Shown here one piece after another: positions 6,593 to 60,779 of a DNA stretch of 64,000 nucleotides (position 1 is the stretch's first letter; each line of letters opens with the position of its first letter). The notes under the pieces are model-generated. The model was not told the DNA's origin. It worked only from the letters and a program-made list of their open reading frames with translations, and ran no database searches. The stretch is from Dehalococcoidia bacterium (GTDB lineage: Bacteria > Chloroflexota > Dehalococcoidia > Bin125): positions 1,664,001 through 1,728,000 of the forward strand of contig OY820591.1 of assembly GCA_963555985.3 (NCBI GenBank), in the 5' to 3' direction. The translations under genes were made by a program, and so were the position numbers.

Positions 6593-7582
6593 TCATGCAG
6601 GTACGAGGCCAGGTTTGAGACCTAGCCGGTCGCGGATTTCGTCCGACATTTCCGACCAGTGCTCCACGAGTAGTTCTACGAGCTGATTGCCGTTGATCAG
6701 CTCGATCGGCTGGAATCCCTCTGCCGTCGCCCGTTTCTTTGTACGCTTTGCAAAGTCAGAGGTGGTGATGATCGCTCCGCGCCCGCCGTCCGGGATTCCA
6801 CCACGTAGTTCTTGCACCGTCTTAGGGTTGACGTTCCGCCCGACCTCGTATCGTTTTGCCTGAACGAACACCCGAACGCGAGCGAAACTCGCACCAGATA
6901 GCACGCCAACGACATCAACCCCTTCATCGCCGGAGCCTCCAGTTCGCTCAACGTCCTCGTATCCCACCGCGGTCATCAAGTCTTTCACGAAGAACTCGAA
7001 CTCGGTTGGGTCAAGCGTCAGGATTCGCTCAATGACGGCCTTCGTGGCATCCACTTGCTGAACTACGAGTTCCGGCGATCGCCCTTCGGACATCGCGACT
7101 ATCGCGAGAAAGTCGCGACGACTGTTCACGGAGAAGACGGTTATGCGTCCGCGAAGATTGTTCTGAAGCGCGATCGGCAGCGCCCACCGATCCAATGGCT
7201 GCTCCCTCCACTCGACGGTGCGTCGGTGTCGGAATTCGCATCCGTCGGAGCCACTGAAGAAGCGGTAGGCACCTGCGGAACCGATCTGGCCATAGAAGAG
7301 CCAGCGCGAGTCAGCCGCCGGGGTAATCACCCAATCTCCCTCGCGCATCTCAAATCCGAACCTGCGGATCTGACCTGCGGCCTGCCCAAGCTCCATCTGG
7401 GTACTCCACGACCACTGATTGCTCAGCGCGTCTTGGATCGCATCTGGCCCGCCGAGATCCTCCAAATCGCCGATTTCGTTCCAACCGATGGCAATGTAAC
7501 CGCCCTCTACCCAGAGGTCGGTGAATCTACCGCCGTCGGCCCGGACGACCCAGACGTTCGGTATCCGCGCTGCCGTGGCCAT
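6593..7582 (-). CDS. mrr: Mrr-family (type IV) restriction endonuclease
   Basis: N-terminal WVVRA...IAIGW domain; C-terminal EFEFFV..L...GY...DEGVDV...QAKRY...IITTSDF...LINGNQL. Confidence 0.85.
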   Translation of the reverse strand: MATAARIPNVWVVRADGGRFTDLWVEGGYIAIGWNEIGDLEDLGGPDAIQDALSNQWSWSTQMELGQAAGQIRRFGFEMREGDWVITPAADSRWLFYGQIGSAGAYRFFSGSDGCEFRHRRTVEWREQPLDRWALPIALQNNLRGRITVFSVNSRRDFLAIVAMSEGRSPELVVQQVDATKAVIERILTLDPTEFEFFVKDLMTAVGYEDVERTGGSGDEGVDVVGVLSGASFARVRVFVQAKRYEVGRNVNPKTVQELRGGIPDGGRGAIITTSDFAKRTKKRATAEGFQPIELINGNQLVELLVEHWSEMSDEIRDRLGLKPGLVPA

Positions 7583-9290: not shown

Positions 9291-10721
9291 CTATCCGTCT
9301 GAGTGTACGGGAGGTTTCCGGTTCGCCCAGGGCTGCAACTGCTCCAGCGCCGAACCGATCCGAATCAGCGACGCTTCGTCGGCATAGGGCGCGATGAAGT
9401 GGGTACCGATCGGCAGGCCGTCCTCGTTCCAGTAGAGCGGGATCGAGGCGGCGGGGTTGCCGGCTGAGTTGAAGGTAGAGGTGTAGGCGACGGTGTAGGC
9501 GACGTCCTCGCCTTGGGCGCGCATGTCGTCGCGGTCGAGGTTGAGGTGACCAAGCGGGAACGGCGGCATCGCCATCGTCGGCGTCAGCATCAGGTCATAG
9601 CCGGTAAAGAAACCGGCCACGATCCGCCCGATCGCGTGGACGGCGCGAGTAGCGCGGATGTAATCGGCGGCGCTGGGCTGTTCGGAGTTGATCATCTGCC
9701 ACGTGATCGGCTCGACGTCTTCGGGATTAGGTTCGCGGCCAAGTTGGGCAGCGCGATCTTGGACGGCGACAAGCGTGCTGGGGCGAACGACATTCCAGAG
9801 GGCAATCCGCAGTTCTTCGGGAATCTCCAACTCCGCCTCTTCAACCTCAAGCCCAAGCTGGCGGCAGAGGTCGGCGGCGTGATCAACTGCCGCGATGCAG
9901 TCAGGATGCGTCTCAACGCCGTTAAAGGCGTTCGTGATCACGCCAATCCGCATTTGACCAAGATCACGTCCAACCTCCTCAGCCCACGGGCGCTCGGGCG
10001 GCGGCGCATAGTACGGAGCGCCAAGATCGGGACCGGCAGTCGCATCGAGCAACGCCGCAGAGTCGCGCACGCTGCGAGAGACCGCGTGAATCGTCGACTG
10101 CCCCGCCCAACCTTCGCCCACATCGGGACCCGAGGGAGTACGCGCCCGGGTCGGCTTGAGCCCAAACAGGCCGCAGCAGGAGGCGGGAATGCGAATGCTG
10201 CCGCCCCCATCGGAGGCGTTCGCAATCGGCAAGATTCCCGCCGCCACCGCCGCGGCCGCGCCCCCGGACGATCCGCCCGCCGTGTGCTCGAGATTCCACG
10301 GGTTGCGAGTCTTGCCGTGAACGATCGACTCGGTCGTCGCGGTGATCCCGAACTCAGGCGAGGTGGAGCGTCCAAAGATGGACAATCCCGCCGCCTTGTA
10401 TCGCGCCGTCAGCTCATGGTCGTGATCGGGCACGTAGTCGACGAAGATCCGCGAGCCGTTGCTCATTGGCTGACCCGCATAGAGCAGGTAGAGGTCCTTG
10501 AGCAGAAAAGGCACGCCCGTGAACGGTCCCTCGGGCAGACCGGCGTAGGCGCGTTCTCGCGCCTCGTCGTAGTAGGGATAGACCACTGCGTTGATCTGCG
10601 GGTTGACCCGTTCCGTGCGCTCGATCGCTTCTTCGAGCAGCTCGGCCGCTGAAACCTGCCCGCTGCGAACCATTTCGGCGAGGTCGGTCGCGTCATAGTC
10701 GGAGTAGTTCTGAATAGCCAT
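9291..10721 (-). CDS. Amidase signature family protein
   Basis: [31 protein letters not shown]; start MAIQNY with GGAGG RBS. Confidence 0.93.
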
Positions 10722-10810
10722 GACAATCCTCCACGTGGCGTAAATGGCGCGTTCGCTTCGAGCAGGATACCGAGTAGGCGTAGGCTGGCGGCAGTGCCGA
10801 AGGAGCCACA

Positions 10811-11518
10811 ATGCGCGTCGATGGCCGCCGAACCAGCGAAATCCGTCCGCTCTCCTTCGAGACCAACGTGCAGATGCACGCCGCAGGCTCCTGCATCGTC
10901 AGCGCGGGTAACACCCGCGTGCTCTGCGCCGTCTCGTTCGAGGACAGCGTGCCCCGCTTCCTGCGCGGTACCGGTTCCGGCTGGGTCACAGCCGAGTACA
11001 ACATGCTCCCGGCCAGCACCAACACACGCACGAACCGCGAGCGCGCCCTTTCCTCCGGACGCACGCACGAGATTCAGCGCCTGATCGGGCGCAGCCTGCG
11101 CGCCGCGCTCGACCTCGATCGGCTCGGCGAACGCACCTTCACCATCGATTGCGATGTGCTCCAAGCCGACGGCGGCACCCGTACAGCCGCCATCACAGGC
11201 AGTTGGGTCGCTCTGCGCCTGGCCCTAGCCCGCGTCGGCATGGCAAACCCGCCTCTGAACGGAGCGGTCGCCGCAATCTCAGTCGGGATCGTCGCCGGCG
11301 AGGTCCTGGTTGATCTCTGCTACGAGGAGGATTCCGCCGCCGAAGTCGACTTCAACGTCGTCGCTCTGGACACCGGCAGCCTGATCGAGGTCCAGGGCAC
11401 AGCCGAAGGCGCTGTCTTCAGCCGCGATCAGTTGAACGAAATGGTGCGCGCCGCCGAGTCCGCTTTGCCCGGCATCTTCGCCGCGCAAGAGCAGGCAATC
11501 GAGGCCGCTCAGAAATAG
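10811..11518 (+). CDS. rph: Ribonuclease PH
   Basis: GWVTAEYNMLP, GRTHEIQRLIGRSLR, DCDVLQADGGTRTAAITG. Confidence 0.97.
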   Translation: MRVDGRRTSEIRPLSFETNVQMHAAGSCIVSAGNTRVLCAVSFEDSVPRFLRGTGSGWVTAEYNMLPASTNTRTNRERALSSGRTHEIQRLIGRSLRAALDLDRLGERTFTIDCDVLQADGGTRTAAITGSWVALRLALARVGMANPPLNGAVAAISVGIVAGEVLVDLCYEEDSAAEVDFNVVALDTGSLIEVQGTAEGAVFSRDQLNEMVRAAESALPGIFAAQEQAIEAAQK

Positions 11519-15295: not shown

Positions 15296-15323
15296 TGGCC
15301 CGCTTCCCCCGCGCTCTTCGGAG

Positions 15324-16451
15324 CTAGCTGCCGGTGATCCCCGGAATCATCGCTCCCGCAGCAGGAGTGAAACCCTCTTCCACCAGGGCGGATTGGAGCG
15401 CCGCAAAGCACGCCGCCATCTCGCCCTCGTCAAGCCAGCCCAGATGACCAATCCGGAAAATGTCGCTCGCCAGCTTGCCCTGACCGCCCGCGATCACCAC
15501 GTCGTACTGCTCCCGCAGCCGCTTCGACAGCGCCGACTGAACTACGCCCTCGGGCACCCGCACAGCAGTCACCGTGTCGGAGGCGTACCGCTCGTCCGCC
15601 AGCAATTCCAGCCCCATCGCCTTCACCGCAGCGCGGGTCCAACTCGCAAAGCGGTGATGACGCGCATAGATCGCCTCAGTCCCCTCCGCAGCAAGCAGCG
15701 GCAGCGCCGCATCCATCGCGTAGAGCGTTGGCAGCGCCGGCGTCCACGGCGGTTGACCGCGCGTCGCGTACTCGTGGTGAGTCGTGAGATCGAAGTAAAA
15801 CTTGGGCATCGTCGACGCTTCCGCCGCCGCCCAACCGCGCTCCGAGAGCGCCGCCATCGCAATCCCGGGCGGCGAGAGCCAGCCCTTCTGCGAAGCCGTC
15901 ACCACCGCATCCAGACCCCACTCGTCCATCTGCATGTCGATCGAGCCGAGCGACGAAACCGCGTCAACGATGATCAGCGGATCCGCGACCTCCCGCACCG
16001 CCGCCGCGATCGCCGCGATCGGATTCGTGACCCCGGTCGACGTCTCGTTATGTGTAATCAGCAGCGCGTCGTAGTCGTCCTCAGCGATCAGTTCCGCCAC
16101 CAACTCAGGCGTCGCCGCATCCCCCCACTCGATCTGCGACCGCTCCACATCGGCCCCGTACTGCTCGGCAATGCTGGCGAAACGATCCCCGAACGAGCCG
16201 ACCGTCACGCAGAGCGCCTTGTCCCCGGGCGAGAGCGTGTTCACGACCGCCGCTTCCATCGCTCCGGTACCGCTGCTGGAGAGAATCAGAATCTCTTGCT
16301 CAGTCCCGAAAAACGGCTGAATTCCGCAAGTCAGCCGCTCGAGCAGCTCCGCGAACTCGGGGCCGCGATGGTTGATCATCTCCCCCGCCGCCGCCGCGAG
16401 CACATCGGGCGGGCACGGCGTGGGACCGGGAATGCGAAGGTTGGTAGGCAT
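15324..16451 (-). CDS. Class V PLP aminotransferase (alanine-glyoxylate/serine-pyruvate or phosphoserine type)
   Basis: LRIPGPT, SSGTGAMEA, HNETSTGV, VDAVSS, ASQKG, FRIGHLG; upstream of serA. Confidence 0.9.
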   Translation of the reverse strand: MPTNLRIPGPTPCPPDVLAAAAGEMINHRGPEFAELLERLTCGIQPFFGTEQEILILSSSGTGAMEAAVVNTLSPGDKALCVTVGSFGDRFASIAEQYGADVERSQIEWGDAATPELVAELIAEDDYDALLITHNETSTGVTNPIAAIAAAVREVADPLIIVDAVSSLGSIDMQMDEWGLDAVVTASQKGWLSPPGIAMAALSERGWAAAEASTMPKFYFDLTTHHEYATRGQPPWTPALPTLYAMDAALPLLAAEGTEAIYARHHRFASWTRAAVKAMGLELLADERYASDTVTAVRVPEGVVQSALSKRLREQYDVVIAGGQGKLASDIFRIGHLGWLDEGEMAACFAALQSALVEEGFTPAAGAMIPGITGS

Positions 16452-16528
16452 GGTGCGGCGACAGGCCTTCTCTACGATGTGATCTGCGCGTACTGCACTG
16501 AGCCTAGTCAGCGCTTGGAGTGGCGACA

Positions 16529-17920
16529 ATGTCGGATTTGTCAGCCGCGTTGCGGCAGTTGCCCAGCGTCGATCGGCTGCTCTCCGATCCCGCACTCTCG
16601 GAGCTCCGCGCCCGGCTCCCCCACGACCTCTGCGTAGCGGCCGTGCGTGACGCACTCGCGCAGGCCCGCGCCGAAATTCAGGCAGGACGGAATCCCGTCC
16701 CGACCGCCGAGACCCTTGCGAGACAAACGGCCGCAACCCTGGAGCGCCGCTACGGCCGCTCGCTCCGCTCAGTCGTGAATGCGACCGGCGTCGTCATCCA
16801 CACCAATCTCGGGCGCGCTCCGCTCTCGCAAGCCGCGACCCAAGCGATGACCCAGGCCGCGGCCGCTTACTCCAATCTCGAATTCGAACTCTCCACAGGC
16901 ACGCGCGGCTCGCGTGCGACTCATCTCGATTCACTGCTCACGGCCGCGACCGGCGCAGAAGCCGGCATCGCCGTCAACAACAACGCCGCCGCCCTCTACT
17001 TCGTGATGTCGGTGTTCGCGGCCGGCCGCGATCTGATCGTGAGCCGCGGTCAGGCGGTCGAGATCGGCGGCGGCTTCCGCATCCCCGACGTCATCCGTCA
17101 GAGCGGGGCGCGCCTGGTCGAAGTCGGCACGACCAACCGCACTCGAGCCCAGGACTACCGCGACGCCCTGAGCGACGAGACCGCTGCCCTCCTCCGCGTC
17201 CACTCCTCCAACTTCCGCATCATCGGCTTTGTCGAAGAGACCACCGTCGCCGAACTGCGCGCCGTAGCAGACGATCACGAGACCCAAACCGCATCGCCCC
17301 CGCTGCTCATCGACGACGTAGGCAGCGGCTGCCTGCTCGACACCCGAAACTACGGACTCGCCTACGAACCGCGCCCCCAAGACTCCGTCGCGGCCGGCGC
17401 GGACCTGGTGCTGTTCTCGGGCGACAAGCTGCTCGGCGGCCCCCAGGCAGGAATCATCGTCGGCCGCGAATCGGCAATCGCCCCGCTCCGCCGGCATCCC
17501 CTCATGCGAGCCTTGAGACCGGACAAGACCACGATCGCCGGACTCGCCGCAACCCTGGAACACTACTTGGCCGGCGAAGCCGAAACCCAAATCCCGATCT
17601 GGCAAATGATCGCCGCCGAGCCGGCAACTCTCCGCAAACGCGCGGAATCATGGCAGGCAACCCTCGGTGCGGGCCAAGTCTCCCAATCGGAATCCGCCAT
17701 CGGCGGCGGCTCACTCCCCGGCGAAACCAGGCCAACCTGGGTCTGGAGCATTCGCCGCGAACACCCCTCCAAATTCGCCGAAGCCCTGCGCCGCTCGAAT
17801 CCCCCCGTAATCGCCCGCGTAACCGACGACCAAATCCTCCTCGATCCCAGAACCGTCCTCCCCGGCCAAGACCAACTCGTAATCGCCGCCCTCCGAGCAG
17901 CGCTCGGAGAGGTCGCATGA
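16529..17920 (+). CDS. selA: L-seryl-tRNA(Sec) selenium transferase
   Basis: VNATGVVIHTNLGRAPL, VNNNAAA, VEIGGGFRIPD, EVGTTNRT, FSGDKLLGGPQAG. Confidence 0.97.
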   Translation: MSDLSAALRQLPSVDRLLSDPALSELRARLPHDLCVAAVRDALAQARAEIQAGRNPVPTAETLARQTAATLERRYGRSLRSVVNATGVVIHTNLGRAPLSQAATQAMTQAAAAYSNLEFELSTGTRGSRATHLDSLLTAATGAEAGIAVNNNAAALYFVMSVFAAGRDLIVSRGQAVEIGGGFRIPDVIRQSGARLVEVGTTNRTRAQDYRDALSDETAALLRVHSSNFRIIGFVEETTVAELRAVADDHETQTASPPLLIDDVGSGCLLDTRNYGLAYEPRPQDSVAAGADLVLFSGDKLLGGPQAGIIVGRESAIAPLRRHPLMRALRPDKTTIAGLAATLEHYLAGEAETQIPIWQMIAAEPATLRKRAESWQATLGAGQVSQSESAIGGGSLPGETRPTWVWSIRREHPSKFAEALRRSNPPVIARVTDDQILLDPRTVLPGQDQLVIAALRAALGEVA

Positions 17921-23512: not shown

Positions 23513-24145
23513 TCAGCCCGGAAGCGGCAGCCCCCGCACCCGCGCAAGGTCGTCCAGCAAGCGCCCCAGCATCGTCGCGGTCGCCCCGAAGATGCGGTGC
23601 CCCTCGTACCAGTACTCGCGCATCTGGAACACCTGCCCCTCGCGTTCCCGCGTCTCGAACGTCAGATTGGCCGGATCGAGCAGGTGCGAGAGCGAGGGCG
23701 TGATCACCTCCCCCACCTCGATTTCGAGCGGCCGGAACGGATAGGGCGCGCGGTCGAGCAGCCCCACGAAGGGCGTGACATGAAAGTCGGTCATGGTGCG
23801 GTAGTGCGACTGCTCGCCCAGGATTTCGACATGCTCGGCGCGAATGCCGACCTCTTCGTCCGCCTCGCGCAAGGCCGCCGCCAGCGGCGTCTCATCGACT
23901 GAATCGAGCGCTCCGCCCGGAAACGAGATTTCGCCCTTGTGATGCTCGACCTGATGCGAGCGCACGGTCAGCACAATCTGCGGATCGTTGTAGGGCAGCA
24001 CCGGAATCAACACCGCCGCCCGCCAGCGGCCAAGCTCAGGAGGCAGCGTCTGGAGGTCATGCAAGACCGCCGCCCGCCGCACTTCGCTCAGCGCAGGCAC
24101 TTCCTCCACCGACTCCGCTACACGGTCAGCGTGAGTACTGGACAT
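23513..24145 (-). CDS. Nudix hydrolase, CoA pyrophosphatase (NudL-like)
   Basis: AAVLIP, LTVRS...HKGEISFPGG, AALREADEEVGI, IFGATA. Confidence 0.92.
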   Translation of the reverse strand: MSSTHADRVAESVEEVPALSEVRRAAVLHDLQTLPPELGRWRAAVLIPVLPYNDPQIVLTVRSHQVEHHKGEISFPGGALDSVDETPLAAALREADEEVGIRAEHVEILGEQSHYRTMTDFHVTPFVGLLDRAPYPFRPLEIEVGEVITPSLSHLLDPANLTFETREREGQVFQMREYWYEGHRIFGATATMLGRLLDDLARVRGLPLPG

Positions 24146-24200
24146 GAGCTCCCATTTCAGCAATGCAGGCCAAACTGTCACTACTGTACTGCGCGCTTTG

Positions 24201-24591
24201 CCCTCCTTGTCCCCTCTCCCTTGAGGGGAGTTGCGCGTACATCACATTCCCGTTGCTCTCGTCATTCCAGCGAACGCTGGAATCTCGCTCCGACCAGATA
24301 ACCTGCAATTCCGGACGAGATTCCAGGTCAAGCCTGGAATGACGGAATTTGGGATTACGCGCAGGTCTCCTTGGGGGGTTGCTTGGGGCTTGGATGCTGG
24401 GGGTGGGTACCCCCTCTGTCCCCCGCCTGCGCGGCATCTCCCTCCCCGCGTGCGCGGGGGCAGGCTCCGCAGAGGGGGGGGAGAGGGGAGGTTGGTTGGG
24501 GGCGTTTGTGCTGGGGGTGGCGTTTCACCCCCTCTGCCCCGTTGGGGCATCTCCCCCTTGAGGGGGAGATTCTTGGGGGCGGGGATGACGG
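24201..24591. repeat. Cluster of REP-like palindromes from two families
   Basis: GTCATTCCAGCGAACGCTGGAATCTC 24261-24286 and GAGATTCCAGGTCAAGCCTGGAATGACGG 24317-24345 (inverted doublet); CCCTCT..CATCTCCC..GGGGG units at 24411-24460 and 24528-24569. Confidence 0.85.
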
Positions 24592-24610
24592 CATTGTGGG
24601 TGGGCATGGG

Positions 24611-26032
24611 TTAGAGCTGATTTCTCATGCTGGCGATGCGGCCGCGGTCGACGGGCGGGAGGTGGAAGAACTCGATCCGGGTGGTTGGCGGTTCGAGTTG
24701 GGGTTGGGCCAGCTCGTGGCAGTAGCGGTCGGCGTCCAGGAGGTCGTCGTCGCGGTCCCGGGGTTGGGGGTTGGCGGCGCGGGGGTCTCGCCACTGGTAC
24801 TCCCTCATGCGGCGCGGGAACTGGACGAGCTCGGGGGTGTAAAAGGACGTCGGCGGGTCGGCGGCGAGCCGCTCTTGCACCAGGCCGATGCCCTGGTGGA
24901 CGGAGCCGGGGCCGCCCCGGCTGGGGCGGATGTCGCGCCCGCGGCGGTGAAGGTGGTCGATCCAGGCGGACTGCGTGCGGTCGGCGTTCCAACTGATTGA
25001 GCCGAAGCGCCGGCGGCACTGGAGCATCCACTGTTCGAGCCGCTGGGTGACGCCCGGGCCTCTGTCCTCGAACTCGGCCAGGCGGATCAAGACGCCCGGT
25101 CCGCAGACGGCATGGCGGGTGGTGAGGCCGGCGACGATGCCGGCGGTGTAGTGGGCCTGTTCGGTCTGGGCGCCGAAGTCGAGGCCGCCGAGGTAGCGCT
25201 CGAAGCTGGGCAGGCGCTTGTCCCAGAGATGCAGTTTGGGGTCGAACTTGGGGTAGACGAGGCCCTCGAAGGCGTCGAAGCGTCCTTCGATGAAGCGTTC
25301 GACCCAGTCGGGCGGGAGCAGGGCGCGTTGCTGCTCGGCGTAGTTCTCGGGTAGGTGGGGGTTGTCTTCGATCTTGGCGGGGATGAAGCGGGCTTGTCCG
25401 CCGGCGTGCTCGAGTTCAGCTTTGTTCAGTTCGCGTTGGACGAACCAGCGCTCGAACCAGCCCGGGTGCGGATTGGAGGCGGCCACGAACCAGCGTTGGG
25501 GCTGGGCCGGGTGACGCAGGCGAGTGAGCAGCATCTGGGCGGCTTCTTCGGCCACTTCGCCGGCTTCGTCTATGAGCACGGTTCCGTACTGCTGGGAGCC
25601 GAGGCCGGTCCAGTCGGAGAGATGGCGAAAGTGGATCGTGGAGGGTTCGCTCGAGTACTGGAGGCTGCTGACCGTGAGGGAATGGGTGGGTGAACTGCGG
25701 CGTTGGATGGTGAGGTCGGGGTCTGCGGTGCAGATGCGCAGGAACTCGCCCATGGTCGTGGTGTAGAGGTCTGTGAACGTGTCGCGTGCGAGCAGGATGT
25801 TGTTGCCCGGGAAGATCAAGGCCGCGTCCAGGGCGAGCTCGGCCAGGGCGCGGGTCTTGCCGCCGCCCATGGCGCCGCCGTAGCCGACCAGGGCGAGGCC
25901 GGGATTGGGCACGGTAGCGACTGCGCAACAGAGCTCGCGCTGTCTGTCCGTCGGAAAAAAACCGCGAGACTTGTGCAAGCGGTCGAACGCAACGACCGCC
26001 CGCTTTGAGCTGGGGGTATTACTGTGGCTCAT
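24611..26032 (-). CDS. Phage terminase large subunit (orphan)
   Basis: Walker A YGGAMGGGKT, Walker B VLIDEAGE, TRLR, ASNP, DNPHLP..Y, RNase H-like GLDFG and DDDLLDADRY. Confidence 0.88.
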   Translation of the reverse strand: MSHSNTPSSKRAVVAFDRLHKSRGFFPTDRQRELCCAVATVPNPGLALVGYGGAMGGGKTRALAELALDAALIFPGNNILLARDTFTDLYTTTMGEFLRICTADPDLTIQRRSSPTHSLTVSSLQYSSEPSTIHFRHLSDWTGLGSQQYGTVLIDEAGEVAEEAAQMLLTRLRHPAQPQRWFVAASNPHPGWFERWFVQRELNKAELEHAGGQARFIPAKIEDNPHLPENYAEQQRALLPPDWVERFIEGRFDAFEGLVYPKFDPKLHLWDKRLPSFERYLGGLDFGAQTEQAHYTAGIVAGLTTRHAVCGPGVLIRLAEFEDRGPGVTQRLEQWMLQCRRRFGSISWNADRTQSAWIDHLHRRGRDIRPSRGGPGSVHQGIGLVQERLAADPPTSFYTPELVQFPRRMREYQWRDPRAANPQPRDRDDDLLDADRYCHELAQPQLEPPTTRIEFFHLPPVDRGRIASMRNQL

Positions 26033-26375
26033 CCTCTTCCTCTTCGCTTTCCTCGTCCTCCGTCAGGGGGACGTCTTCGCCGCGCATGAGGGCGGCTGCT
26101 TGGGCGTGGACCGAGTGGAGGTGGAACTCCTTCTGCTGCTCAGCGGTGAGCGGGGCTTCGGGCAGGTGGGGGGAATGGTTGGGCCGGGGCGGGGGCTCGG
26201 GGTGGGGTTCGATGCCGAGCGCGTAGTGGATCTCGCGGCTCTTGGGGTTGGCGGGGGAGAGTTCGCGGCGCAGGATGGCGAAGGCTTGGGCGCGGACGTA
26301 GCCGGGTTCGCGCTTGGAGAAGGCGAGCTCGCCGACGCCGGCCATGGCGGACTGGTAGCTGTAGTTGAAGGGCAT
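26019..26375 (-). CDS. Hypothetical acidic-tailed protein upstream of the terminase
   Basis: 118 aa, GAGAGGA RBS, overlaps the terminase start by 14 bp. Confidence 0.6.
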   Translation of the reverse strand: MPFNYSYQSAMAGVGELAFSKREPGYVRAQAFAILRRELSPANPKSREIHYALGIEPHPEPPPRPNHSPHLPEAPLTAEQQKEFHLHSVHAQAAALMRGEDVPLTEDEESEEEEDEPQ

Positions 26376-26413
26376 GGGTCGGGGTTCCTCTCTTGCTGAA
26401 TGAAGGACACTTG

Positions 26414-26434
26414 ATCTTATATGGATGGGTGTTC
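26414..26434 (-). promoter_or_regulatory. Putative promoter of the terminase operon with degenerate LexA-like box
   Basis: - strand reads GAAC-ACCC-ATCC-ATA-TAAGAT. Confidence 0.4.
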
Positions 26435-26490
26435 GGGTGGGTAATTTGGGGTGTGTCGTGGTTGACTGAGGGTTGGGTGCTGGTCACGGC

Positions 26491-26571
26491 GAGATACCCG
26501 CGACGGGGCGCGGGTATGACGGAGCTTGTTTGGGGCGGGTATGGCGGAGCTCTGGGCGCGGGTATGACGGA
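26491..26571 (+). repeat. REP-like palindrome plus two tandem half copies
   Basis: GAGATACCCGCGACGGGGCGCGGGTATGACGG, then GGGCGGGTATGGCGGA and GGGCGCGGGTATGACGGA. Confidence 0.85.
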
Positions 26572-26626
26572 AATGGGGATTTAGGCGCAGGTCTCCAAAC
26601 GACAGAGCGACAACTTGACCAACTAT

Positions 26627-26702
26627 TGGTGGGCCGGGCTGGATTCGAACCAGCGACCGAGCGGTTATGAGCCGCCTGCTCTGACCCCTGAGCTACCGGC
26701 CC
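26627..26702 (-). tRNA. tRNA with CAU anticodon, most likely tRNA-Ile2 (lysidine)
   Basis: GGGCCGGTAGCTCAGGGGTCAGAGCAGGCGGCTCATAACCGCTCGGTCGCTGGTTCGAATCCAGCCCGGCCCACCA, 76 nt, encoded CCA; paired 1-72 and body resemble Ile2 rather than fMet. Confidence 0.93.
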
Positions 26703-26767
26703 CGTGTTCGTGGCAATCTGGAGCGAGTCTACAGGGGAGTTGCGGGGGCTGTCTTAGGCTGCGGCGT

Positions 26768-27346
26768 ATGTGGCGTTGCCGGCCGGTCTCTGTGCTCTCG
26801 CTTGTGGCGGTTGCGTTTGCGGTGTTGGCCTGTGGGCCGGTGCCGGGCATTTCGGGGGAGTCGGCCAATCTGGGCGGGGTGCTGCCGCCCGCGACCGCGC
26901 GACCGAGCGGTCTAGACGCCTATCTCGAACTCCCCGACGACGTCGAACAGGTCGTCTTCCCCTACTCGGAGGTGACGATTGAACGGGAGGCCGGCGTTCT
27001 CACCCTGGGCGTACTCGTGGCGAACACGGGCGAGCGGCGTCAGCGCGGGCTGATGTACTGGACCGGTTTGCCCGCGCAGATGGGCATGATCTTCATTTGG
27101 GAAGGCGGCGGCGAGCGTTACGGCGGGTTCTGGAACCAGAACGTGCCGATGGACTTGAGCGTCGCGTTCCTGGATCGGGACGGCGTCGTGATGGAGTTCG
27201 TCACCCTGTACGCGCAGGACGACGAGGTGAAAGCGCCCGCTCAAGCCTACGCCTACGCGCTCGAGGTTCCGCGCGGCCGCTTCGAGCAACTGGGCATTCG
27301 CGTTGGCGATCGGGTGCGGATTCCGCAGTCGCTCTGGGCGGAGTGA
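26768..27346 (+). CDS. DUF192 family protein, probably a lipoprotein
   Basis: Hydrophobic N-terminus ending VLAC; VANT..RQRGLM, GMIF, FWNQNVPMDLSVAFLD, YALEVPRG. Confidence 0.85.
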   Translation: MWRCRPVSVLSLVAVAFAVLACGPVPGISGESANLGGVLPPATARPSGLDAYLELPDDVEQVVFPYSEVTIEREAGVLTLGVLVANTGERRQRGLMYWTGLPAQMGMIFIWEGGGERYGGFWNQNVPMDLSVAFLDRDGVVMEFVTLYAQDDEVKAPAQAYAYALEVPRGRFEQLGIRVGDRVRIPQSLWAE

Positions 27347-43605: not shown

Positions 43606-44059
43606 CCGTCATTCCAGGCTCAGCCTGGAATCTCGCCCCATGTCCCCGGCTTGCCCTCCGACGGACAACGAAGTACACTTGTGCTTATCCATCGCCAGAG
43701 CCGGATCAATCCCATGCTCGCGCACCCTGTCCCGCCCGCCAACGACCACTCCCGACACCAACGAACCAGGCCCGAACGACGCCGACCAGACCTGTACGGT
43801 ACCGAACAAAATCGACCAAATCCGAACGAAATCGAACACCCAAACTTTCCAGGACTAACCACCGCCTACCACCCGGATCTCACGATCTCCCGTAAAACAC
43901 TGGGTTTCCTCCACCAACTCGCTCGGAAAAAAATTCGGCCTCCACTCAGCGCGCGCCGAAACATCTCCCCTCCGAACAACGCCCTCCGACAAGCTCGACA
44001 CATCTGCGACGACAGCCTAGAACGCGGCGAGATACTCGCGACAAGCGCGAGTATGACGG
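43606..44059. repeat. Element bounded by inverted REP copies (43606-43634, 44029-44059) enclosing a promoter and 10-bp phased repeats
   Basis: CCGTCATTCCAGGCTCAGCCTGGAATCTC and GAGATACTCGCGACAAGCGCGAGTATGACGG; units CGAACAAAAT/CGACCAAATC/CGAACGAAAT/CGAACACCCA at 43803-43842. Confidence 0.75.
43651..43686 (+). promoter_or_regulatory. sigma70-type promoter overlapped by a LexA-like palindrome
   Basis: TTGCCC-N17-TACACT; AAGTAC-ACTT-GTGCTT at 43671-43686. Confidence 0.6.
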
Positions 44060-44081
44060 AGTGGGTGTGAGTGAGTCCGGC

Positions 44082-57352: not shown

Positions 57353-57928
57353 TCAGTCGGAACGATGTTCTCTGATTGCGGAAACAATCGCCTCTCTCGA
57401 CTCATCTCGATCCCGAAGGTGCTCAGCGAATTCCCTGCCCGGATGCAAAGTGTCCCACTGGGATCGCCTCTGATTCCGGCGTCCTCTGCCGGGGTCCTTG
57501 ACGCCGAACCCGTCCACCGCAACATTCCAAAGCGGCTGGTAGCGGGCGATCAGCACTTGCTCAGTCAGCCCTATCCATACCGGGTCGAGGACCAGCCAGC
57601 GGCAAGTGAAATCATCCAGGTCCAGATTCCTCGCAGCCGCAATCGAGCGGGCGTGTTGCGTGAGCCGTTGGTAGAGCGTGGAGGCTCGTCGCGCTGTAGC
57701 GGCTACGCGCCCCTGTCGGCGTCCGGGCGGGGCGGCCTTGCCTACGTAGATCGGCTCATTGGGATCCATGTCGGCGTAGGCGTGGAACGAGCCAGCGCAA
57801 TGCAGCGTGTAGACCCCAGGGCCGAAAAACGACTCGGGCGGCGGCAGTGTCGCCGGCGGATACTCCATCAACGCCAGAGCCGCATTGCGCCCAATCTCGT
57901 CAACGCTGAGCGGGTTGTACTCCCGCAT
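57353..57928 (-). CDS. Eco29kI-family GIY-YIG restriction endonuclease
   Basis: YNPL, FFGPGVYTL, PIYVGKA, RLTQHARSI, E..LI....PLWN..VDGFG..DPG.GR, SQWDTLHPGR. Confidence 0.88.
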   Translation of the reverse strand: MREYNPLSVDEIGRNAALALMEYPPATLPPPESFFGPGVYTLHCAGSFHAYADMDPNEPIYVGKAAPPGRRQGRVAATARRASTLYQRLTQHARSIAAARNLDLDDFTCRWLVLDPVWIGLTEQVLIARYQPLWNVAVDGFGVKDPGRGRRNQRRSQWDTLHPGREFAEHLRDRDESREAIVSAIREHRSD

Positions 57929-57931
57929 ACG

Positions 57932-58621
57932 CTATCTCTCGCAACTACGGTCGTTGCGGCAGACGATCCAGAAGCAGTGGCGCTTGCGGGCGTGATGGGC
58001 TGTCTTCCACTTCGTTGAGACCATCGGTCCGGTACGCACCTTGACGATCAGGTCGCAGACGGTGAATCCGGCCTCCTCGGCCATGCGCATAAAGTCCACG
58101 TGCGCCCACTGGGAGCGGTGAGAGTTCACCATGTCCGTGATCTTCGCCAGCAGCAGACCTCGAGGTTTGAGCACCCGCCTCGATTGCTCGAGGAACGGCG
58201 GATAGAGGTAGCTCAGCGTCCAGCCGTGCTCCTTACCGCATTCGACGGTCGCCCCAAAGTCCTCGTCGAACCGCTTGCTGCTCTTGCCGCGCCCCTGCGG
58301 GCCGACGTGGGGCGGGTCATAGACGACGACCCCATAGGCATCGTCAGGAACGCCGATCATTTTGCGGTTGTCGCCGACAATCATCGGCTTGAACTTGGGA
58401 TCGATGTCCATCGACACCACATCGCGAGTGGACCCCTTCCAGAACCGGCCTCGGTTGTAGGTCGCGTCCAGGATCGGCTCTGGCGGGATCGACGAATAGA
58501 AGTTCAGCATCTGCTCGATCAGGTCGCCATCATTTCCCTCCCACACGCTGCTCAGAGGCCGGTACTGCTCTGTCTCAGTCGGAAGCTGCGGCTCGACGCC
58601 TTGTCTGAGAAGACCACTCAT
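57932..58621 (-). CDS. Short SAM-dependent DNA methyltransferase-like protein with DPPH motif
   Basis: ILDATYNRGRFW, MDID, VVYDPPH, RVLKPRGLLLAK; 3 bp from the nuclease start. Confidence 0.75.
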   Translation of the reverse strand: MSGLLRQGVEPQLPTETEQYRPLSSVWEGNDGDLIEQMLNFYSSIPPEPILDATYNRGRFWKGSTRDVVSMDIDPKFKPMIVGDNRKMIGVPDDAYGVVVYDPPHVGPQGRGKSSKRFDEDFGATVECGKEHGWTLSYLYPPFLEQSRRVLKPRGLLLAKITDMVNSHRSQWAHVDFMRMAEEAGFTVCDLIVKVRTGPMVSTKWKTAHHARKRHCFWIVCRNDRSCER

Positions 58622-58638
58622 GATCACTCTCCCGCAGT

Positions 58639-59356: not shown

Positions 59357-59378
59357 AGAACGCTCGTACGCATATAAT
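59357..59378 (+). promoter_or_regulatory. LexA-like box abutting a TATAAT -10
   Basis: AGAAC-GCTC-GTACG-CA-TATAAT. Confidence 0.65.
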
Positions 59379-59440
59379 CGGCCAAGCTCAGCCCCTCCCT
59401 ACCGCCAACGAGACCCGGCATGACCACTCCAACCAGTCTG

Positions 59441-59546
59441 GACAAACCGAGACAAACCCGGACACACAGCCTAATTTCACTCAAAAACACCGACCAAATC
59501 TATACAGATCTGGACAAATCTGGACTTTTCCGGACTACCTACCGCC
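59441..59546 (+). repeat. 10-bp phased direct-repeat arrays
   Basis: GACAAACCGA/GACAAACCCG/GACACACAGC, then CGACCAAATC/TATACAGATC/TGGACAAATC/TGGACTTTTC/CGGACTACCT. Confidence 0.8.
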
Positions 59547-59696
59547 CAATTTCCCGCCCACAACGGCAAATTCGCTCTATCCGCTCAGAAATTCCCTCAT
59601 ACCCCAGCCAAACCTGCGATCCCCGTGCTTCGTCCATCTGCACAGACCCTAGAATCCCAAGCCAAGCGTCCGTTGAGCGACAGCGAGGAAACGCAT

Positions 59697-60595: not shown

Positions 60596-60729
60596 GTCAT
60601 GCCCGCGAAGGGAGACCTTTGCGTAAATCAAAGATCGTCATACCCGCGCCTGTCGCGGGTATCTCACCATGATCTGCACCGTCGTCGCGAACACGGCGAG
60701 ATTGCCGCGGCGGAGCGCGGCAATGACGG
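60596..60729. repeat. REP-like inverted doublet plus partial copy
   Basis: CGTCATACCCGCGCCTGTCGCGGGTATCTC 60636-60665; GAGATTGCCGCGGCGGAGCGCGGCAATGACGG 60698-60729. Confidence 0.85.
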
Positions 60730-60779
60730 AAGCAGGCTGCCCAGTACCATTCGATCGATTCCCATTGAAGGAGCGCGGC

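Follow-up and report, generated by a model that had tools for sequence, protein, structure and literature searches.

A solitary large-terminase gene in a Dehalococcoidia chromosome belongs to a multi-copy family of two-gene modules, apparently with LexA-type promoters

What does a bacterial chromosome do with a large-terminase gene that has no virus around it? Large terminases are hallmark genes of tailed viruses, and a lone terL is usually read as prophage debris. Such a gene lies in the stretch of DNA analysed here, 64,000 nt of a Dehalococcoidia bacterium (Chloroflexota; contig OY820591.1, positions 1,664,001 to 1,728,000; hereafter "the window"): a gene for a 473-aa TerL, overlapped at its start by a gene for a 118-aa protein. 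The original prediction, made from the letters of the window, took the pair to be a domesticated, possibly damage-induced terminase rather than a product of decay, and named a dispersed gene-transfer agent, a packaging hijacker and an anti-phage decoy as its possible roles. The main new fact reported here is that the pair is one copy of a Chloroflexota family of modules, each consisting of a small, acidic-tailed partner protein and a TerL. The TerL is a known kind of protein; its organisation as a stand-alone module is new, and no such family was found in a search-level look at the literature on SAR202 terminases, on orphan or domesticated terminases, and on terminases together with the LexA regulon. 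We are highly confident that the module family is real and selected rather than decaying. The reading that we prefer—with a probability of roughly 0.4—is that the pair is a functional operon and not a prophage relic, in which an SOS-controlled terminase would act in trans on capsids encoded elsewhere.

That the TerL is intact, with its ATPase and nuclease motifs in place, is borne out by profile searches, alignment and predicted folds. The protein is matched by the Pfam families Terminase_6N (7.6e-10; 39.2 bits, cut-off 22) and Terminase_3 (3.4e-7; 30.4 bits, cut-off 23.2), and residues 51-440 by the PHROG_2 terminase large subunit profile (5.6e-26); against TIGR01547, the PBSX-family TerL equivalog, it scores 44.9 bits, below the cut-off of 105.05. 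A search of the PDB with a family profile retrieved the TerL of phage D6E (4e-14), and the AlphaFold2 (AF2) model of the window protein (confidence score pLDDT 90.5) has D6E TerL as its best Foldseek match (7e-23), followed by Sf6, HK97, T4 and the SPP1 nuclease. The N-terminal ATPase, of the additional-strand catalytic glutamate (ASCE) type, contains Q31, Walker A (52-60), R83, Walker B (152-156) and ASN (185-187), while the C-terminal, RNase-H-type nuclease contains D285, D351 and D430/D433/D435. At least 97% conservation is observed in a 121-sequence alignment for the Walker A (GGAMGGGKT), Walker B (LIDEAGE) and AASNP coupling motifs, and equally for the nuclease motifs LGGLDFG, ADRTQSAWI and DDLLDADRY. 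Among 63 sequences reaching down to 33% identity, no substitution is seen at R83, E156, N187, D285, D351 or D430, and almost none at the Walker A lysine.

The portal and capsid cluster expected around a phage TerL was found neither in the 64-kb window nor within ±10 kb of 11 related loci. In the window, a Pfam search of 50 open reading frames (ORFs) returned no portal, capsid, tail or integrase gene; the neighbours are housekeeping genes, among them MutS2, MgsA/RarA, NUDIX, DUF192, glycerol kinase and glycerol-3-phosphate dehydrogenase. PHROGs searches of 12 window ORFs (nine without a Pfam match and three previously unscanned) returned no virion or integrase gene, and added only a DNA methyltransferase. 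The third-position GC content (GC3) is 0.86 for terL and 0.87 for the small gene, as compared with 0.62-0.90 for the other called genes of the window, and no GC anomaly was found across the module region. Nor was any att-like duplicate of the tRNA 3' end found flanking the module. The original prediction had seen no portal, capsid, integrase or att duplication in the 64 kb, and Pfam, PHROGs and a repeat search agree. It had also placed the module at the 3' end of a tRNA gene. The neighbour is real: tRNA-Met(CAT), the sole tRNA of the window and the only Rfam match in it, is encoded on the strand of the small gene and ends 252 nt before it. The position is not a family trait, however, and was rejected as such: a credible tRNA lies near the module at only two of 12 loci (the window and L006), the tRNA calls at L005 and L008 falling inside ORFs.

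How widespread is the arrangement? At E<=1e-3 the window TerL has 193 relatives (candidates scored), the best 120 of 193 being 54-97% identical, and an exhaustive search of representative sequences gave 53 TerL clusters at E<=1e-30. The named relatives among the matches listed all come from Chloroflexota or Chloroflexi metagenome-assembled genomes (MAGs); NCBI calls members of the family "phage terminase large subunit". The closest of 50,697 phage records reach 23-28% identity, over no more than 56% of the protein, and none covers at least 80% of it. Among the next TerL relatives, at 37-48% identity, are proteins that contain inteins; LAGLIDADG or Hint inteins are carried by relatives at 34-48% (P0135, P0141, P0143, P0154, P0192 and others). 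Since inteins are frequent in true phage terminases, these relatives are likely to be genuine phage enzymes and the closest viral relations that the family has.

A genome scan identified 11 related loci (L001 to L011) in Chloroflexota/Dehalococcoidia MAGs, eight with a full-length terL and three with its 5' end only. At none of the 11 were virion genes seen in the surrounding ±10 kb: (i) Pfam returned none in 109 ORFs within ~±5.5 kb of the eight full loci, and none in 21 ORFs around L009-L011 and the partner genes of L002 and L004, (ii) PHROGs returned none for 18 ORFs without a Pfam match at related loci, and (iii) in the outer parts to ±10 kb, none of 110 ORFs of at least 90 aa matched a PHROG of the head, packaging, connector or tail classes at E<=1e-8. 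The flanks vary from locus to locus and are metabolic, with luciferase-like monooxygenases, family III CoA-transferases, enolase-superfamily enzymes, DinB_2 proteins, ABC transporters and chaperones. The sole mobile-element gene seen at the 11 loci is a transposase fragment at 2419-2781 of L004 (PHROG_33747, 6.5e-14), 7 kb off the module.

Individual genomes carry several modules. Two MAGs gave three loci each; seven 90%-identity clusters of partner proteins (65-97% identical to that of the window) share a longest-contig value of 3,145,412 bp, and three share 1,227,423 bp, an equal value being a proxy for one contig rather than proof of it. A maximum-likelihood TerL tree was built from 44 rows (the window, eight loci, 30 large-contig proteins and five outgroups), for which only genome-distinguishable proteins were chosen. 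Copies from the same genome are spread over two or more deep clades, with a few recent duplications, and the window copy groups with its 97% and 88% relatives on its own long branch.

The second gene of the pair, also called by the original prediction, proves real by its host-like GC3 and by its company: a homologue of the small protein adjoins terL in 12 of 12 loci (profile search of the window and the 11 related loci). In the window the small protein is present as a single copy (tblastn and profile search). At ten of the 12 loci its gene lies upstream of terL, co-directional and overlapping—directly upstream being the position of a small-terminase (TerS) gene—and at the remaining two, L002 and L004, the genes are divergent and 150-210 nt apart. 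Structure prediction, a check suggested at the outset, gave an N-terminal domain of three helices (residues 7-53, AF2 pLDDT ~90), a variable, Pro-rich and largely disordered middle linker, and a strongly acidic tail. The tail finishes in (D/E)EDEP(P/Q/L/H) in all versions (...EEEEDEPQ in the window copy); given that it is kept in the divergent layout as well, overlap with terL alone does not explain it. The window protein has no match in Pfam, PHROGs, PADLOC or NCBIfam. PHROGs matches of 54 members of its family are weak and scattered (best E 0.0017), none of them to a terminase, and are attributed to the acidic tail. The predicted fold has no match in the PDB (Foldseek, best E 2.1), and the PaP3 small terminase was discarded as a candidate fold (E 8.5 over 27 columns, not meaningful). 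A language model places the protein near small viral proteins (0.90-0.92) and, at 0.84, near a Terminase_2 cluster, which is a lead only; structural neighbours in the Atlas are weak, and comprise helix-turn-helix (HTH) and Lsr2 DNA-binding proteins (TM-score 0.46-0.49).

Does the partner bind TerL? Prediction of the complex for the window pair gave a score of 0.60, against 0.00 for the best control; the runs agree in at least 48% of contacts, and the partner has a pLDDT of at least 58. The mark used is reached by 116 of 157 solved complexes and by two of 215 mismatched pairs, and a score that reaches the mark without exceeding 0.60 is seen in 18 of the 157 solved complexes and in both of those mismatched pairs. 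Together with the prior given by linkage, this weak prediction makes it likely that the two proteins interact. As a separate observation, small coiled-coil proteins with a C-terminal membrane anchor adjoin the module at five of the 12 loci, the window not among them; these have no Pfam or PHROG match.

Rates of substitution indicate that intact modules are maintained. L003 and L004, from different MAGs, are syntenic and 86-90% identical in nucleotide sequence over ~17 kb. In the 3' two-thirds of their terL genes the synonymous divergence (dS) is 0.36, and in the flanking acetyl-CoA synthetase and CoA-ligase genes it is 0.42. In the same part of terL the ratio of non-synonymous to synonymous rates (dN/dS) is 0.21; the two flanking enzymes have 0.03-0.04, and a DinB_2 paralogue has 0.26. 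Another seven pairs of TerL gave 0.21-0.48. The partner diverges more quickly than TerL, with dN/dS values of 0.26-1.37 in eight pairs. Purifying selection on TerL, taken with the conservation of its motifs, excludes neutral decay for the intact copies. The proposal of domestication rather than decay is thus upheld by the motifs, the dN/dS values, the solitary loci and the conservation of one site in two MAGs; the phylogeny and dN/dS of orthologues, named beforehand as its check, show purifying selection on TerL and old paralogues in deep clades.

Selection is accompanied by exchange and loss. Between L003 and L004, the small gene and the first ~138 codons of terL are unalignable, with synonymous differences saturated, while the surroundings align; this indicates that the partner and the N-terminal part of TerL were replaced together, presumably from a paralogue. 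L009, L010 and L011 (three of the three decayed loci) each keep the promoter, the box described below and an intact small gene, with terL cut just after Walker A. In L010 an internal deletion joins ...AIDA to the DRY... of the C-terminal nuclease motif, and the locus shares 87% identity with L008, an intact copy from the same MAG. In L011 a chimeric 358-aa ORF (9992-11068) runs from the TerL N-terminus to Walker A, through a repeat-derived linker, into a PHP-domain protein. L009 and L011 occupy one chromosome at a distance of 26 kb, and the ~630 nt between promoter and terL break are 100% identical in the two. N-terminal pieces of TerL, broken at the corresponding position or a little beyond it, are found in P0232, P0227 and P0276, and frameshifted ones in P0179, P0202 and P0229. 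As the breaks fall where the DNA is most highly conserved, recombination among paralogues is a likely cause.

What controls the modules? A consensus sigma-70 scan found no promoter in 24000-26800, and the promoter assignment for the window therefore rests on homology with the other loci. At nine of ten independent loci the small gene is preceded by GAAC-N4-GTTC with at most one mismatch, and a -10-like hexamer (TAYSAT) comes 3 nt after this box. The enrichment was evaluated for ten lineages (254,956 nt, with promoter zones of 200 nt each, 2,000 nt in all; the near-duplicates L010 and L011 were left out). Perfect boxes fall inside the promoter zones in four of four cases (binomial P 4e-9), GAAC-N4-GTWC boxes in eight of ten, and boxes with at least three of the four right-half bases in 12 of 110, where 0.78 are expected. 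In PMC3323433, GAAC-N4-GTTC is named as the motif that LexA binds in Bacillus subtilis, in Mycobacterium tuberculosis and in Gram-positive bacteria. Judging by this motif, LexA-type control of the module family is probable. The LexA of Dehalococcoides itself is said to use GAAC-N4-GTTC.

For the window copy the case is different. Its box, GAACACCCATCC, is followed by ATA and then TAAGAT, as the original prediction had it; the spacing is indeed that of the site at 59358, where the best LexA-type box of the window, GAACGCTCGTAC, is followed by GCA and TATAAT. The window copy is the only one of ten lineages with two mismatches, and GAAC-N4-ATCC is not present beyond chance (five matches in the window vs 2.39 expected; 10 of 100 shuffles reach five). 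Being the worst of the ten, the box leaves inducibility of the window copy doubtful: LexA-type control of this particular copy is a tentative proposition drawn from the motif, and the copy may be constitutive or weakly repressed. The predicted damage induction is hence supported at the level of the family, whose promoters are enriched in LexA-type boxes, and is doubtful for the window copy. Coordinates of the features are collected in Table 1.

Table 1. Features of the module in the window, and boxes and coiled-coil neighbours at related loci
Feature	Locus	Position	Strand	Basis or remark
terL-like gene, 473 aa	window	24611..26032	(-)	ORF with ATPase and nuclease domains
Small partner gene, 118 aa	window	26019..26375	(-)	ORF; 14-nt overlap with terL start
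Shine-Dalgarno-like GAGAGGA	window	26386..26392	(-)	10 nt before small-gene ATG; gagaggaac also before L006 small ORF
-10-like hexamer TAAGAT	window	26414..26419	(-)	same position as TATGAT/TACCAT elsewhere; not called by sigma-70 scan
Degenerate LexA-type box GAACACCCATCC	window	26423..26434	(-)	right half with two mismatches to GAAC-N4-GTTC
Intergenic stretch upstream of module	window	26440..26626		three REP-like units of the CCGTCATACCCGCGCC type, generic rather than marking module ends
Intergenic stretch downstream of module	window	24182..24610		dense REP-like palindromic units, CCGTCAT and CCCCTCAAGGGGGAGATGCC types; generic repeats
tRNA-Met(CAT)	window	26627..26702	(-)	neighbour only; without att-like repeat
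Box GAACACCAGTTC-ata-TATGAT	L003			
Box GAACCGGTGTTC-cta-TACCAT	L001			
Box GAACCCACGTTC-ata-TACCAT	L008, L010			
Box GAACTGATGTTC-tca-TACCAT	L002			second box faces terL (divergent genes, one box each)
Box GAACACCAGTAC-gta-TATGAT	L007			
Box GAACATATGTAC	L009, L011			
Box GAACACCTGTCC-gca-TACCAT	L006			
Box GAACATTTGTTT	L005			
Box GTACATAGGTTC	L004			
Coiled-coil neighbour	L001	9125-9445	(-)	
Coiled-coil neighbour	L010	9147-9422	(-)	
Coiled-coil neighbour	L003	8883-9440	(-)	
Coiled-coil neighbour	L004	8883-9398	(-)	
Coiled-coil neighbour	L006	11387-11683	(-)	

Repeats resembling repetitive extragenic palindromic (REP) sequences had been described as bracketing the module. Units are indeed present at both flanks, and four of the five window matches of CCGTCATNCCNG sit there (0.23 expected). 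Units of the flank types also occur at 43606, 44040-44060 and 60636-60730, which identifies them as general intergenic repeats rather than module ends; the bracket is real, its specificity is not. Two types fill intergenic DNA (24182-24610, 26440-26626, 43606-43635, 44040-44060, 60636-60730): CCGTCAT(A/T)CC with a hairpin, and CCCCTCAAGGGGGAGATGCC. A GGGGAGATGCC-type REP unit is also present in loci of other Chloroflexota MAGs. The flanking direct repeats 24346-24370/26572-26596 and 24575-24592/26506-26571 were considered as element ends and rejected, their REP families being found elsewhere too. A 10-mer, CGAACACCCA, said to be common to the promoter and a repeat unit at 43833, is identical at the two sites (26426, 43833); two occurrences compare with 0.13 expected, and two of 100 shuffles reach two, so that its specificity is marginal and it carries no weight here. 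REP-derived sequence is also seen inside a coding region: in L007 (10961-11029; TerL residues 321-343), an insertion containing PPAVRRGEMSRR occupies a surface loop of the nuclease domain without shifting the frame and leaves the ORF open. The L008 TerL has another insertion in the same loop, and both proteins carry an 18-aa insertion directly before the Walker A strand.

We propose the following working for the module, in which a small acidic-tailed protein would be translationally coupled to a complete TerL motor with ATPase and RNase-H-type nuclease. (i) A LexA-type repressor would sit on the box abutting the -10 hexamer, and DNA damage would turn the operon on, as the motif suggests; the window copy, with its weakened box, may be leaky. 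(ii) The small protein would bind TerL, probably by the variable N-terminal part of the latter, and target or restrain it—a step suggested by the constant pairing, the joint exchange of the 5' segment and the weak complex prediction. (iii) TerL would cut and translocate DNA, as its fully conserved motor and nuclease motifs imply. (iv) TerL would act in trans on procapsids specified elsewhere in the genome, by either a host-controlled particle resembling a gene transfer agent (GTA) or an SOS-induced prophage. The partner would be a TerS-like specificity subunit, such that dispersed modules start the packaging of chromosomal DNA, and SOS control would synchronise the module with the production of prophage or GTA-type particles. 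The family appears to be inherited with its chromosomal flanks and to turn over by duplication, paralogue exchange and decay.

The packaging role is favoured by the retention of all motifs of a translocating ring (Q motif, arginine finger, coupling motif) and by a partner in the TerS position; even so, we hold it only tentatively, given what weighs against it. No capsid, portal or tail gene was seen in the 295 kb examined, which makes the required capsids hypothetical, and seven terminase modules are hard to justify for one particle type. The partner matches no TerS family (Pfam, PHROGs) and no solved fold, and its disordered middle gives no hint of a core that could form a ring; support from the complex prediction is weak. 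The two mismatches of the window box and the lack of enrichment of GAAC-N4-ATCC count here too, as does the circumstance that LexA binding in this lineage is read from a motif. Finally, all three decayed loci keep the small gene and lose TerL, N-terminal TerL fragments recur, and the small gene evolves fast, a pattern that fits a toxin-antitoxin-like module at least as well.

Such a capsid-independent module is the most serious competitor, and we regard it, still tentatively, as nearly as likely as packaging in trans. TerL would here be an SOS-inducible, ATP-dependent nuclease/translocase working on cellular or invading DNA, with the partner as inhibitor or adaptor; the pair would behave as a type II toxin-antitoxin (TA) or abortive-infection system or, less likely, as a damage-response enzyme. 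As in a type II TA operon, a small upstream gene whose product has a folded N-domain and a disordered C-terminal part overlaps a larger enzyme gene and evolves faster than it; many diverged copies per genome are scattered among housekeeping genes; birth-and-death turnover destroys the enzyme and keeps the small gene and promoter (L009, L010, L011; fragments P0232, P0227, P0276); partner and enzyme N-terminus are swapped as one block; and capsid genes are missing from the DNA examined (the window and 11 loci). TA pairs controlled by LexA exist in Escherichia coli (e.g., dinJ-yafQ, yafNO). On the other hand, neither protein matches any family among the PADLOC v2 defence profiles, the neighbours are metabolic rather than defence islands, and we know of no TerL-type toxin of 470 aa. 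A simple nuclease toxin would not require a full translocation apparatus, yet the arginine finger, coupling and Q motifs are (nearly) invariant, and a toxin that cuts DNA would, if controlled by the SOS response, act back on the signal that induces it. A different doubt concerns the box, which could be the operator of the small protein, autoregulating through its three-helix N-domain with no link to DNA damage. The confident prediction of that domain, its weak Atlas resemblance to HTH and Lsr2 proteins and the assignment of the box to LexA from its motif all speak for this; we nevertheless think it rather unlikely. The GAAC/GTTC half-sites are constant though the small proteins are only 19-37% identical, a situation more in keeping with a conserved host factor than with a private repressor that co-evolves with its site; the box equals the Gram-positive LexA consensus as given in PMC3323433, and a similar box with TATAAT lies at 59358, away from any module.

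Could the module instead move by itself, with the RNase-H-fold nuclease of TerL serving as a transposase or homing enzyme? Many copies at unrelated sites, the identity of L009 and L011 over ~630 nt and the REP-like repeats around many copies would be in keeping with a self-copying unit. Transposon or insertion-sequence features, however, were not found: no inverted terminal repeats of the module, no target-site duplication and no conserved ends, with no conserved sequence downstream of terL across nine loci and the next gene only ~35-70 nt past the terL stop in L001, L002 and L006. Copies within a genome are old (65-88% identical) rather than near-identical, the L003/L004 site is orthologous with a dS like that of its flanks, and homology between copies stops at gene or promoter borders or inside the Walker A DNA, which resembles gene conversion between paralogues; we consider a mobile element very improbable. 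Least probable of all, to the point of being almost negligible, is an ordinary prophage remnant that is intact by chance. A solitary terL beside a tRNA is the classic picture of one, and the name that NCBI gives to the family says as much; against this stand purifying selection, motifs conserved in 121 sequences, a conserved operator, host-like GC3 with neither a GC anomaly nor an att repeat, and the same two-gene unit alone at 11 other loci.

How does the preferred reading, a terminase working in trans, compare with systems already known? The TerL shares the two-domain fold and all catalytic motifs of phage TerL proteins (of the Terminase_3 or PBSX-SPP1 kind; nearest structure D6E TerL, 5OE8), and differs from them in lying away from portal and capsid genes, in being multi-copy, chromosomal and vertically kept, and in having a LexA-type box. 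As in phage terS-terL operons, the upstream small gene overlaps terL, is faster-evolving and encodes an N-terminal helical domain, and the C-terminal part of the partner could, like that of TerS, contact TerL; unlike in those operons, the partner has no TerS family or fold match, a disordered middle and an acidic DEDEP end, and is divergent at two of 12 loci. RcGTA is a host-regulated gene transfer agent with LexA involvement, and GTAs keep one copy of the terminase in the head-tail cluster. The resemblance lies in packaging genes of phage kept by a host lineage under host stress regulation, here predicted from the box; the difference lies in the several paralogous modules and the lack of structural genes in the 295 kb. 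The satellites known as phage-inducible chromosomal islands (PICI) and phage-inducible chromosomal minimalist islands (PICMI) are helper-induced, possess an integrase, att sites and replication genes, and capture capsids with a small-terminase-type protein of their own while using the helper's TerL. The module is likewise a small chromosomal element, but brings its own TerL, and no integrase, att site or replication module was found in the window or at related loci. With LexA-controlled type II TA operons (dinJ-yafQ, yafNO) it shares the small gene in first place, the overlap, a putative SOS box, scattered diverged copies and orphan small genes, whereas the putative "toxin" is a complete 473-aa terminase motor and no TA or defence profile is matched. 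A minor possibility, in our judgement, is that the module is an SOS unit made of a terminase only, with neither capsid nor integrase, or equally the first TA or abortive system built on a complete terminase motor. In the former case a TerS-like partner would recognise its own chromosomal neighbourhood and a private TerL would load it into available procapsids upon damage.

Several further features of the window were noted. Restriction-modification genes lie at 93-1550, 6593-7582 and 57353-58627, and encode an N6/N4 methylase-HNH fusion, an Mrr-type endonuclease, and an Eco29kI endonuclease with an adjacent methyltransferase. Upstream of selA (16520-17920), ~1.2 kb (15296-16519) contain one doubtful 90-aa ORF and no tRNA or Rfam match. 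At 59358-59625, ~250 nt without a called gene separate the LexA-type box from an enoyl-CoA hydratase ORF; Rfam returned nothing there, and the interval could be a damage-induced small RNA or peptide locus. Its leader (~59470-59560) has short repeats in common with 43760-43880, which holds CGAACACCCA.

The two principal readings can be told apart, as packaging in trans and a capsid-independent module predict opposite outcomes for (i) capsid genes in carrier genomes, and (ii) the toxicity of TerL alone. For the organisms, the finding means that a bacterial lineage has long kept an intact, stand-alone, multi-copy TerL family with a constant partner, apparently wired to the DNA-damage repressor. 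If this is true, virus calling and host linking based on terL would give false positives in Chloroflexota and SAR202-like MAGs, and the family would provide an experimentally manageable example of a viral DNA motor that was domesticated away from a virion gene cluster. It would also represent either a new damage-induced route of DNA transfer in abundant, uncultured marine and sponge-associated bacteria, or a new class of nuclease module; and should the terminase-only unit turn out to be the right description, dispersed modules would drive the transfer of themselves and of adjoining host genes.

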